A program made the translations under genes and the position numbers. Below are positions 15,598-16,841 of a stretch of 64,000 nt of DNA, piece after piece. The notes beneath the pieces were generated by a model. It was not told the DNA's origin. It saw only the letters and a list, made by a program, of their open reading frames with translations, and did not search any database. Origin of the DNA: an uncultured virus (IMG/VR IMGVR_UViG_3300029787_000020) (lineage: Duplodnaviria > Heunggongvirae > Uroviricota > Caudoviricetes); the IMG/VR virus record IMGVR_UViG_3300029787_000020. One strand, 5' to 3'. Numbering within the stretch: position 1 is the first letter of the stretch; the number at the start of each line of letters is the position of its first letter.

Positions 15598-15797
15598 GTT
15601 TAGCAAGACCAATAGAAGAATCACTTAGAGCAGCTCAAGAACATCTAAGAGATGCTTTAGCATTTGCAGCACGTGGTGAGAAACCATACGTATCAAAACA
15701 TATTGCTGATTTTTTAGCGGATATTGATAATCTTATTGATGCTCATGAGATAATAGAAAAAATAAATGAATTTAGTAAAAAAGAGGATGAAAAATGA
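15594..15797 (+). CDS. Hypothetical cyanophage protein
   Basis: EESLRAAQEHLRDALAFAARGEKP; ATGA coupling. Confidence 0.75.
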   Translation: MSLARPIEESLRAAQEHLRDALAFAARGEKPYVSKHIADFLADIDNLIDAHEIIEKINEFSKKEDEK

Positions 15798-16141
15798 CAG
15801 TTACAAAAGAAACTAAAAGTAAACAAAAAAAATGTTTTTGGTCAAAAGAAGAGAAAGAAACATCAAAAGAAGTTTATGGAACTGAAATTCTAATTGAGAA
15901 TGGTACACTCGACGAAGTAATGACCACTGATGCACCAACAGATGCGTCTGTCGTGACATATGAAATAGGTGGCACTGTTCATCGTGACCTAACAAGAGGT
16001 TCAAGAGCAAAATTGTTTGATATGTATTACGATAAGTTTAAAATGGGTTTGAAGATCATCGATTATGGTAAAGGTGGTATCAAACCAAACCTTTGGGGTT
16101 ATCGATCACCCACATCACCCAAAAAGAAAAGAAAGTCTTAG
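15794..16141 (+). CDS. Hypothetical cyanophage protein
   Basis: DLTRGSRAKLFDMYYDKF..IDYGKGGIKPNLWG; ATGA coupling. Confidence 0.75.
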   Translation: MTVTKETKSKQKKCFWSKEEKETSKEVYGTEILIENGTLDEVMTTDAPTDASVVTYEIGGTVHRDLTRGSRAKLFDMYYDKFKMGLKIIDYGKGGIKPNLWGYRSPTSPKKKRKS

Positions 16142-16166: not shown

Positions 16167-16201
16167 AAAATATCCCGACAAAAAATCGGGGTATTTTTTT
16201 T
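16167..16201 (+). terminator. Intrinsic terminator insulating the riboswitch unit
   Basis: AAAATATCCCGA-caaaaaa-TCGGGGTATTTT plus T-run. Confidence 0.65.
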
Positions 16202-16214
16202 AGCCACAGGATTT

Positions 16215-16230
16215 TGTATCAGAAAATACA
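16215..16230. promoter_or_regulatory. NtcA-type box
   Basis: TGTA-tcagaaaa-TACA matches GTA-N8-TAC with flanking T/A; just upstream of a -35. Confidence 0.6.
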
Positions 16231-16237
16231 TAAGTGC

Positions 16238-16266
16238 TTGACTATATACTGTACATGTGTTATTAT
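16238..16266 (+). promoter_or_regulatory. sigma70-type promoter
   Basis: TTGACT, 17 nt, TATTAT with TGn extension; predicted start ~16273, right at the first aptamer. Confidence 0.75.
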
Positions 16267-16273
16267 TAACACA

Positions 16274-16323
16274 ATCGTTCATCCTGATACATTCAGGACG
16301 CAAGTAAGCCGACTCGGAACGGG
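16274..16323 (+). ncRNA. Glutamine-II (Downstream-peptide) riboswitch aptamer 1
   Basis: CGTTCA-TCCTGA[tacat]TCAGGA-CGCAA..CCGACT..GGAACGG; P1 CGTTC/GAACG; upstream of a DUF4278 peptide. Confidence 0.75.
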
Positions 16324-16325
16324 TT

Positions 16326-16515
16326 CGTTCATCCTCATGTATAGCATTTTAATGAAATTAGTATTACTCGGTGCTCCACTTAATTGTGCAGATGCCAATG
16401 AGTTGCTATCTTTGGTTAGACCCTTTGACCCTAACAGGTTAGAGATGGTTAGAGTAATTGTTGCACATACTGATCCAGTATGTTTTGAGGACGCAAAAGA
16501 CGACTGAAGGAACGG
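16326..16515 (+). ncRNA. Glutamine-II riboswitch aptamer 2 with a 148-nt insertion in the P2 loop
   Basis: CGTTCA-TCCTCA[148 nt]TGAGGA-CGCAA..CGACT-GAAGGAACGG; same scaffold as aptamer 1 with a compensatory G-C to C-G change in P2. Confidence 0.65.
16337..16507 (+). CDS. 56-aa ORF nested in aptamer 2
   Basis: MYSILMKLVLLGAPLNCADANELL...DPVCFEDAKDD*; ATG at the top of the P2 5' arm and TGA inside the aptamer 3' core. Confidence 0.6.
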   Translation: MYSILMKLVLLGAPLNCADANELLSLVRPFDPNRLEMVRVIVAHTDPVCFEDAKDD

Positions 16516-16575
16516 AAACACGGATCACCCTCACGGGTTAAAGGTGAAAATTCCAATTACTTTAGGAGAAAACTA

Positions 16576-16686
16576 ATGGCAAAAGTCACTTATCGTGGTG
16601 TTGTATATGACACCAACAACAAAAAAGCTCAGCAAACAAAAGAGGTCGAACTCACATATCGTGGTATCGCTCACACATCTAAGTAA
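16576..16686 (+). CDS. DUF4278-family small peptide (36 aa)
   Basis: SD AGGAG; MAKVTYRGVVYDTNNKKAQQTKEVELTYRGIAHTSK with two TYRG motifs; below the ORF-track size cutoff. Confidence 0.85.
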   Translation: MAKVTYRGVVYDTNNKKAQQTKEVELTYRGIAHTSK

Positions 16687-16778
16687 TGTTAGTTACCGCA
16701 GAAATTTTAGCAGCATCTGCTATATTTCTAACTATCATTTACGCTGAAGCTAGATTCTTGTATGGATACAAGTTCTAA
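16686..16778 (+). CDS. 30-aa hydrophobic micropeptide
   Basis: TAATG coupling to DUF4278; MLVTAEILAASAIFLTIIYAEARFLYGYKF; ends just before a terminator. Confidence 0.6.
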   Translation: MLVTAEILAASAIFLTIIYAEARFLYGYKF

Positions 16779-16783
16779 ATTGT

Positions 16784-16811
16784 AAGGAGGGGTTGTTACC
16801 CTCCTTTTTTT
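16784..16811 (+). terminator. Intrinsic terminator
   Basis: AAGGAGGG-gttgtta-CCCTCCTT plus T-run; TGnTATAAT promoter element follows immediately. Confidence 0.85.
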
Positions 16812-16841
16812 GTGTTATAATATATAAAATAAAAATTTTTT

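Follow-up and report, generated by a model that had tools for sequence, protein, structure and literature searches.

Putative glutamine riboswitch aptamers enclosing selected protein-coding genes in T4-like cyanophages

In the present paper we describe a putative glutamine riboswitch aptamer whose two halves lie on either side of a protein-coding gene. It is located in a window of 64,000 nucleotides (nt), which is the whole stretch of DNA analysed here, from an uncultured Caudoviricetes virus (IMG/VR IMGVR_UViG_3300029787_000020). Two copies of the aptamer scaffold follow each other on the plus strand of the window: aptamer 1 (16274..16325) is compact, and aptamer 2 (copy 2; 16326..16515, both halves and the insert) contains a gene of 56 codons plus TGA (16337..16507) which belongs to the phrog_504 family. 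Comparison with relatives supports the interpretation that copy 2 is a real aptamer and that what splits it is a real protein-coding gene kept by selection, and shows that, across the sampled genomes, the split design is old and widespread in T4-like cyanophages. The generality of this design, including a second gene family nested in aptamer 1 of many relatives, goes beyond what had been seen in an earlier reading of the window made from its letters only (the sequence-only reading).

Geometry and class of the tandem aptamers

Aptamer 1 has a P1 helix CGUUC/GAACG and a P2 helix UCCUG/CAGGA closed by a 5-nt loop. In aptamer 2, the 5' half (16326..16337, plus strand) consists of the P1 5' strand CGUUC (16326-16330), a single A and the P2 5' arm UCCUCA (16332-16337); the 3' half (16486..16515, plus strand) consists of the P2 3' arm UGAGGA (16486-16491), the junction and core CGCAAAAGACGACUGAAG and the P1 3' strand GAACG (16510-16514), the copy 2 core CGCAAAAGACGACTGAAGGAACG being found at 16492-16514. 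The two P2 arms are separated by a loop of 148 nt (16338-16485). The nested ATG (16337-16339) shares its A with the last base of the P2 5' arm, and the in-frame TGA (16505-16507) is inside the aptamer core, 3 nt ahead of the P1 3' strand; the last six residues of the nested protein are encoded by the aptamer 3' half. The open reading frame (ORF) of 56 codons is the ATG-started portion of a longer open frame (16214..16507). A local hairpin CATACTG/CAGTATG (16466-16472 with 16476-16482, plus strand) is located within the nested gene and adjoins the P2 3' arm. All these elements (both scaffold copies, the arms, the ATG, the TGA and the hairpin) had been pointed out by the sequence-only reading; they can be read directly from the DNA, and the coordinates given by that reading are confirmed. 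In the 64-kb window there are two occurrences of the 3'-half pattern versus 0.04 expected from 100 shuffles, and three of the 5' half CGTTCAYCY versus 0.47 expected, two of the three being exactly at the two aptamers.

In scoring with covariance models, Rfam places the copies closer to the glnA / glutamine-I family (RF01739) than to the Downstream-peptide / glutamine-II family (RF01704). Copy 1 gets 35.1 bits on RF01739, for which the gathering score is 35 (E 7.6e-4, whole window), and 32.7 bits on RF01704, below the threshold of 33. As a proxy for a loop-deleted copy 2 we used natural compact relatives, which carry the copy-2 halves around a loop of 12-18 nt; 20 of them were scanned (18 of the 28 compact IMG/VR loci, S-PM2 and P-TIM68). 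At the copy-2 position all 20 match RF01739 with 29.8-39.4 bits, 10 of them at or above 35, and on RF01704 the scores are 25.5-33.2 bits with one of the 20 at or above 33. The highest RF01739 score belongs to the relative L142 (39.4 bits), whose halves are the same as in the window except for one base of the small P3 loop. No pseudoknot or 3' P2 helix of the glutamine-II motif was identified here. The earlier assignment to a glutamine riboswitch class upstream of a DUF4278 gene is thus retained, being supported by RF01739 and PF14105, but its glutamine-II label is not, as the RF01704 scores are mostly below threshold and RF01739 is closer. Weak Rfam matches in the region (Rev39 5' UTR, Yfr10, freshwater-2 etc.) were far below threshold and were disregarded.

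The long-range fold was analysed in a first sample of 84 sequences, composed of 80 of the 99 IMG/VR relatives (160 candidate stretches, four-protein alignment query), three phage loci and the window. In every one of these 84 the two aptamer halves stand on either side of the gene. The fold alignment contains 64 distinct sequences (L003 was excluded as identical to L002 in the region), and in 64/64 of them the five P1 pairs are invariant. The P2 helices, counted over six pairs, are 100% and 99.5% paired, and three of the six pairs change on both sides, most clearly one represented by UA in 31, CG in 30 and UG in 2 sequences. Neither the observed covariation score nor the observed percentage of pairing was reached by any of 500 shuffles; sliding the 3' partners by 1-3 columns decreases pairing from 94.8% to 33-43%. 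RNAalifold, given the alignment alone, returns the long-range P1 and P2 de novo as the consensus.

A second sample, of greater diversity, was obtained by scanning IMG/VR for the 3'-half pattern, which gave at least 120 stretches; 80 loci were taken, with at least 4 contigs common to the first sample. Pooling of the samples resulted in 45 distinct arm pairs from split copies, in which P2 pairs 1-5 are paired at 96-100% and the arms close over a loop of 138-207 nt. Different pair types are used at position 3 (CG/UA/UG), position 4 (CG/UA/UG/AU) and position 5 (AU/UA/CG/UG), and the pairing observed at positions 4-8 was matched by none of 2000 partner shuffles. The compact copies show the same pattern of a P2 of 5 base pairs (bp), which in them closes a loop of 4-10 nt. 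These comparative data show that the long-range P2 is maintained by compensatory changes, and the compensatory swap between copy 1 and copy 2, pointed out previously within the window, is borne out by covariation among the copy-2 homologues.

Two other combinations of the halves were considered and rejected. Native partners pair at P2 positions 4 and 5 in 37/37 cases. In a circularly permuted aptamer, composed of 5' half 2 and 3' half 1, these positions pair in just 19 and 8 of 37, and in an outer pairing of 5' half 1 with 3' half 2 in just 8 and 6 of 37.

The local hairpin at 16466-16482 is present in the window, as had been reported, but its conservation among the 64 sequences is partial: the helix is 84.6% paired with one covarying pair (UA 35, CG 15, UG 14), the outer 4-5 pairs hold (RNAalifold keeps 5), and the two inner pairs are unpaired in 27-29 of the sequences, i.e., they break in about half of them.

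A further hairpin may arise at the junction of the tandem aptamers. In all 77 tandem loci (16310-16335 in the window) 2-3 nt separate the P1 3' strand of aptamer 1 from the P1 5' strand of aptamer 2, and the two strands can form 5 bp around a GGUU loop (GAACG, CGUUC), which could couple the two aptamers negatively.

The nested genes and their distribution

The gene nested in aptamer 2 (ORF2) matches phrog_504 with E 5.7e-5 for the window protein (residues 6-55), 4.7e-13 for P-HM2 and 5.6e-16 for P-SSM4. Homologous genes are annotated at the same position in P-HM2, P-SSM4, P-SSM3, S-SSM5 and P-RSM6. The frame is intact in 84/84 loci of the first sample, with 55-58 codons, and in 49/49 split loci of the second one, where a single gene stops earlier, within the P2 3' arm. 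The 84 genes represent 65 distinct DNAs encoding only 42 distinct proteins, and their length differences come in whole codons. Over the interior codons, with the aptamer-overlapping ends excluded, the median pairwise ratio of nonsynonymous to synonymous substitution rates (dN/dS) is 0.27 versus 0.74 and 1.70 in the shifted frames; variability at the three codon positions, expressed as entropy, is 31.6 / 16.8 / 44.4. These comparisons show purifying selection on the nested gene.

The N-terminus of the product is hydrophobic, and the protein contains two invariant Cys. When the alignment is widened to 51 proteins (20-88% identity to that of the window), the only invariant residues are these two Cys, one Ala and one Asp, a further Asp being nearly invariant; the Ala and both Asp are encoded by the aptamer core. 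The AlphaFold2 model is helical, with a predicted local distance difference test (pLDDT) value of 77.5, which means moderate confidence. Searches gave no Pfam family above the cut-off and no PDB fold match at E ≤ 0.001, and the Atlas clusters found are unnamed. The short hydrophobic stretch at the N-terminus ends in a conserved L/I-x-T/S/N-C at residues 10-24, which resembles a lipobox, and the second invariant Cys is 5-7 residues from the C-terminus. Perhaps these Cys motifs mark a signal of the lipobox type, or else take part in a disulfide or bind a metal. We also noticed that in P-SSM2 (AY939844.2; L084, approximately 670-840) a homologue of 48 codons occurs inside the split second aptamer with no coding sequence (CDS) in the record; the next annotated CDS of this locus begins at locus position 869.

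Aptamer 1 is also split in P-HM2, P-SSM4, P-SSM3 and most of the IMG/VR relatives, by a gene of 66-68 codons from the phrog_6471 family (ORF1; E ~1e-30). In the 84-sequence sample it is split in 63 cases, compact in 16 (including the window type) and outside the available sequence in 5. ORF1 is intact in 63/63, with a median dN/dS of 0.14 versus 1.6 and 1.7 in the shifted frames. Its AUG and the bases following it pair with its own last codons, forming a P2 of 8-13 bp whose partners change together across lineages (AUGAUA/UAUCAU, AUGG/CCAU, AUGCC/GGCAU), and its stop is either UAA within CGCAAGUAAG or UAG just ahead of the 3' arm. Both nested families have a hydrophobic N-terminus and two Cys approximately 32-36 residues apart. 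Homology between phrog_504 and phrog_6471 was considered and is not shown (hhalign probability 6%, E 0.006, Cys aligned to Cys), and we regard these families, with some reserve, as unrelated.

Of the 80 loci of the second sample, 49 have a split aptamer 2 and 28 a compact one, its state being undetermined in the other 3; all 77 determinable loci carry tandem aptamers. The states of aptamer 1 and aptamer 2 among these 77 are compact/compact in 19, split/compact in 9, compact/split in 33 and not-compact/split in 16. A peptide of the DUF4278 type follows aptamer 2 in 156/164 loci with enough sequence, and most of the remaining 8 carry a close variant of the N-terminal motif outside the search pattern. 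The distance from the aptamer end to the DUF4278 AUG is 30-39 nt in 131/156 loci, and the DUF4278 gene with its Shine-Dalgarno context is alike in split and compact forms. Outside the phages, a search of 185,579 prokaryote genomes for the split-aptamer pattern gave at least 120 matches, and among the matches listed 0/80 loci have both a P2 of at least 5 bp and a fitting ORF; these matches are chance matches in GC-rich genomes, and the sole cyanobacterial one (L247) has neither such a P2 nor such an ORF, so that the scan is uninformative on the use of this design by hosts.

Other structured RNAs occur within approximately 230 nt of the glutamine aptamers in two of the relatives: a manA RNA (RF01745, 77 bits, cut off by the locus end) in L142 at 1-103 on the minus strand, and a tRNA in L117 at 80-151.

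Folding versus translation: a proposed mechanism and its alternatives

The ribosome-binding region of the nested gene (approximately -11 to +1) is composed of the P1 5' strand and the P2 5' arm, and neither nested gene family carries a Shine-Dalgarno sequence of its own. In most loci the ORF2 ATG comes 9-12 nt after the start of CGTTCA. With the start region formed by the aptamer 5' half and the stop placed 3 nt ahead of the P1 3' strand, aptamer 2 cannot be folded and the nested gene translated at the same time, as the sequence-only reading had suggested. It follows from this geometry that a translating or terminating ribosome must unfold the aptamer, and that the folded aptamer must occlude initiation.

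As described in the accessible parts of the literature, glutamine binds in the P1/pseudoknot (PK) helix and stabilises it (PMC6212724, PMC6698751), the stem-loop that corresponds to the glutamine-I P2 lies apart from the binding site as an ordinary helix (PMC6698751), and the glutamine riboswitch upstream of DUF4278 genes is an ON switch in reporters (PMC6212724, PMC6698751). We are somewhat inclined to the view that the mutual exclusion is used by the phage, so that the glutamine-locked fold would block re-initiation on the nested gene and would represent the ON state for the DUF4278 gene. In this scheme glutamine would stabilise P1, locking the mRNA closed; the closed, glutamine-bound aptamer would shut off the nested gene by masking its start site and would at the same time have the form that switches the downstream DUF4278 gene on, which is the known direction for the class. 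With little glutamine, or when ribosomes follow each other densely, the aptamer would stay open and the nested gene would be made. A single sensor would in this way act on two genes in opposite senses. More tentatively, one can suggest an "ORF-spanning riboswitch", in which a single glutamine aptamer placed around a whole gene would act as a ribosome-gated latch with reciprocal outputs, the two unrelated families having been recruited independently into the tandem P2 loops.

Several observations weigh against this scheme. The 5' half is transcribed 150-200 nt before its partner; therefore, the first round of initiation escapes control, and only later rounds are controllable. No expression platform linking aptamer 2 to the DUF4278 start was found, by-eye pairing with the Shine-Dalgarno region giving only 4-bp matches. 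Just the A of the AUG is paired in the window, where P2 has 6 bp, and in 7/84 loci the ATG is 17-18 nt from CGTTCA and thus outside the stem. In the model scoring, copy 1 reaches RF01739 and the compact relatives all match, but copy 2 as it stands gets no Rfam match even at E ≤ 10 because the model cannot bridge the 148-nt insert; copy 1 and the compact relatives are themselves near the RF01739 threshold, with 10/20 of the relatives under it. As the P1 pairs never vary, they are neutral on whether P1 pairs. Many of the compensatory P2 cells are inherited among relatives, and the independent events are few, well below the cell count. Folding of the window RNA gives z = -1.24, with 12/100 shuffles folding as well, and in the minimum-energy fold the 3' strand of aptamer 1 pairs with the 5' strand of aptamer 2, the long-range P2 appearing only in the centroid. 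The glutamine response, ligand binding and translation of the nested gene are predictions from sequence and geometry.

Contigs from RNA libraries cover the region in 4/4 marine runs belonging to 4 studies. Two contigs (355 and 347 nt) are unbroken over 16296-16515, taking in the 3' half of aptamer 1 and the whole of aptamer 2 with its nested gene, and both are preceded by non-window sequence resembling the end of a relative's aptamer-1 gene. In 3/4 runs there are forms which skip 154-156 nt and have 6-10 other letters in this place; these are compact relatives from the same waters. In some runs 16230-16292 and 16524-16544 have no contig cover, from which no conclusion is drawn. The contigs give weak support to transcription, which they cannot prove, and none to translation: they show neither strand nor ends nor level, and DNA can occur in libraries of this kind.

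Among the alternatives, the one that survives best, which we consider rather unlikely, is that the nested gene is a passenger in a tolerant P2 loop, which has no share in ligand binding. Small genes would have been captured there, in the manner of homing-endonuclease genes in loops of group I introns, the aptamer would fold on ribosome-free RNA and regulate only the DUF4278 gene, and the overlap of start and stop with the aptamer would reflect compaction of the phage genome, not regulation of the nested gene. All four compact/split combinations occur among the 77 tandem loci (19, 9, 33 and 16); therefore, inserts were gained or lost without losing the unit, and such freedom agrees well with a passenger. 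The same may be said of the DUF4278 gene and its Shine-Dalgarno context, which do not differ between the two forms, of the stem-loop being a regular helix outside the conserved binding site (PMC6698751, in its accessible part), and of the 7/84 loci with the ATG outside the stem. However, two families without demonstrable similarity share the same placement, with the AUG in the P2 5' arm and the stop in or just before the core, and neither of them has its own Shine-Dalgarno sequence. Moreover, where aptamer 1 is split, the bases that follow the AUG change in concert with the last codons, which costs coding freedom and is needless for a passenger. Even for a passenger, folding and translation would still be physically exclusive.

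Control may also be imagined in the reverse direction: translation of the nested gene, and with it ribosome supply or translational capacity, would decide whether aptamer 2 folds, the ORF being mainly a cis gate for DUF4278, comparable to a leader peptide or to a translated upstream ORF of a riboswitch expression platform, and its protein secondary. We regard such a sensor of ribosomes as improbable. It is attractive in that a ribosome terminating 3 nt before the P1 3' strand would cover this strand, that the short distance from the aptamer to the DUF4278 AUG (30-39 nt in 131/156 loci) would permit coupling, and that an interplay between a translated upstream ORF (uORF) and a riboswitch has a precedent (PMC11260477, as far as its text was accessible). 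Yet purifying selection acts along the whole interior of both nested genes (dN/dS 0.27 and 0.14), with two invariant Cys, which would be unexpected if only translation mattered, and the window protein holds no run of glutamine codons with which the ligand could be sensed by stalling.

Finally, it is very improbable that the insertion destroyed aptamer 2 and left aptamer 1 as the only glutamine sensor, the halves being kept for other reasons (the 3' half as the code for the C-terminus, and 3' half 1 together with the adjoining 5' half 2 as a local intergenic hairpin): the missing Rfam match of copy 2, the minimum-energy fold favouring the hairpin of neighbouring halves and the invariant or nearly invariant D, A and D of the C-terminus would fit such a loss, but the non-coding 5' half is invariant in 64/64, the P2 arms, 140-200 nt from each other, covary and pair at 96-100% with alternative partners pairing poorly at positions 4-5, both aptamers are split in many relatives, which would leave no sensor, and, the two Cys apart, the protein is invariant precisely at the positions that the aptamer core dictates.

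The surrounding unit, known systems and biological meaning

The region around the aptamers reads as one small unit, which would span from a promoter-like site near 16238 to a terminator near 16800. The sigma-70-like promoter (16238..16266, plus strand) consists of TTGACT, 17 nt and TATTAT with TG ahead of the second hexamer, giving 10/12 matches; it is 8 nt upstream of aptamer 1, and is a consensus match only, with 8 such sites in the region versus 6.8 expected. Downstream of aptamer 2, a strong Shine-Dalgarno sequence AGGAG (16564-16568) precedes the DUF4278 (IF17-like) peptide gene (16576-16686, plus strand, 36 amino acids), which matches Pfam PF14105 with 30.9 bits (cut-off 25.3, E 3.6e-7) and phrog_5049 with E 1.5e-15. 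Its stop is overlapped (TAATG) by a hydrophobic ORF of 30 codons (16686..16778, plus strand), which has no Pfam or PHROGs match and is possibly the last gene of the unit. A terminator-like hairpin of 8-9 pairs followed by a T run (16784..16812, plus strand), resembling an intrinsic terminator, probably ends the unit; there are 5 terminator-like sites in the region versus 0.8 expected.

Some further features of this neighbourhood may be mentioned. Between aptamer 2 and the start of the DUF4278 gene the window has a longer spacer (16516-16563; 60 nt) than 131/156 relatives (30-39 nt), and the extra sequence can fold into a small hairpin UCACC...GGUGA. At the place of the 30-codon ORF, a similar start is seen in P-HM2 and P-SSM4. 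Upstream of the promoter-like site, a hairpin CCCGA...UCGGG with a T run is present on the plus strand at 16174-16200, the terminator scan having listed the same site on the minus strand; it may represent a bidirectional terminator closing the upstream gene 15794-16141 (phrog_485).

The tandem copies share with glnA / glutamine-I RNAs the P1 CGUUC/GAACG, the P2 of 5 bp and the conserved junction and GAAGGAACG segment. They also belong, like such RNAs, to the 5' leader of a nitrogen-related gene, here as typically a DUF4278 (IF17-like) one. For the glutamine riboswitch motif, tandem copies have already been described, as stated in the accessible part of PMC2864571. The difference is that here a P2 loop of 138-207 nt holds a selected gene, which starts in the P2 5' arm and stops in the core; the accessible parts of the glutamine-riboswitch literature (PMC2864571, PMC6212724, PMC6698751) make no mention of a gene-filled P2 loop. 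The sequence of the binding site and the type of the downstream gene (DUF4278) are also common with glutamine-II (RF01704), whereas the scores of window copy 1 and most compact relatives fall below its threshold. What is known here is thus the glnA-type class, the tandem arrangement and the gene context; what differs is the selected gene between the aptamer halves.

Protein genes, for example ORFs of homing endonucleases, are found in peripheral loops of group I and group II introns. The aptamers studied resemble them in that an ORF is located in the loop of a structured RNA, a helix must close over it, and translation competes with folding. In contrast to introns, the host RNA here is a metabolite sensor of 50 nt and not a ribozyme, the ORF ends overlap its conserved core, and none of the Pfam, PHROGs, Atlas and PDB fold searches marks the nested genes as mobility genes. 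Another parallel is provided by translational OFF riboswitches with the ribosome-binding site in the aptamer, in which the ligand-bound fold sequesters the start region. In uORF-coupled riboswitches, such as the B12 riboswitch of M. tuberculosis, ribosomes and RNA structure also interact (PMC11260477, accessible part). In both of these groups the regulated ORF is downstream of a contiguous aptamer, whereas here it is between the halves, with a second gene downstream. The sequence-only reading knew of no described gene-within-aptamer design, and our searches agree with this: no description of an ORF within a riboswitch aptamer was found in the accessible text of the literature searched, which comprised passages of Weinberg 2010, Klähn 2018, Huang 2019, a cyanophage genome paper and a study of marine structural variants, the last two mentioning glutamine riboswitches, but neither Ames and Breaker 2011 nor Ren et al. 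2015.

Aptamers are usually treated as compact, contiguous and non-coding, and covariance-model searches assume that they are so. Split copies break this assumption: a standard Rfam search misses them, though they are present in a large share of marine T4-like cyanophages. This suggests that other riboswitch classes merit a repeated search with models permitting gene-sized loops.

If the long-range fold forms in vivo, ribosome traffic and metabolite sensing would compete on the same nucleotides, and a single aptamer could raise the expression of one gene while lowering that of another. The phage-host pairs P-HM2/MED4, P-SSM2/NATL1A and S-SSM5/WH8102 would then represent a test system for the reading of host nitrogen status by phages. 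The two conserved families of small proteins, phrog_504 and phrog_6471, are flagged here as probable nitrogen-status-linked phage genes. Should the latch itself prove true, the split aptamer would be a design shaped by selection, through which cyanophages control the nitrogen metabolism of the host, and not an accident of insertion.

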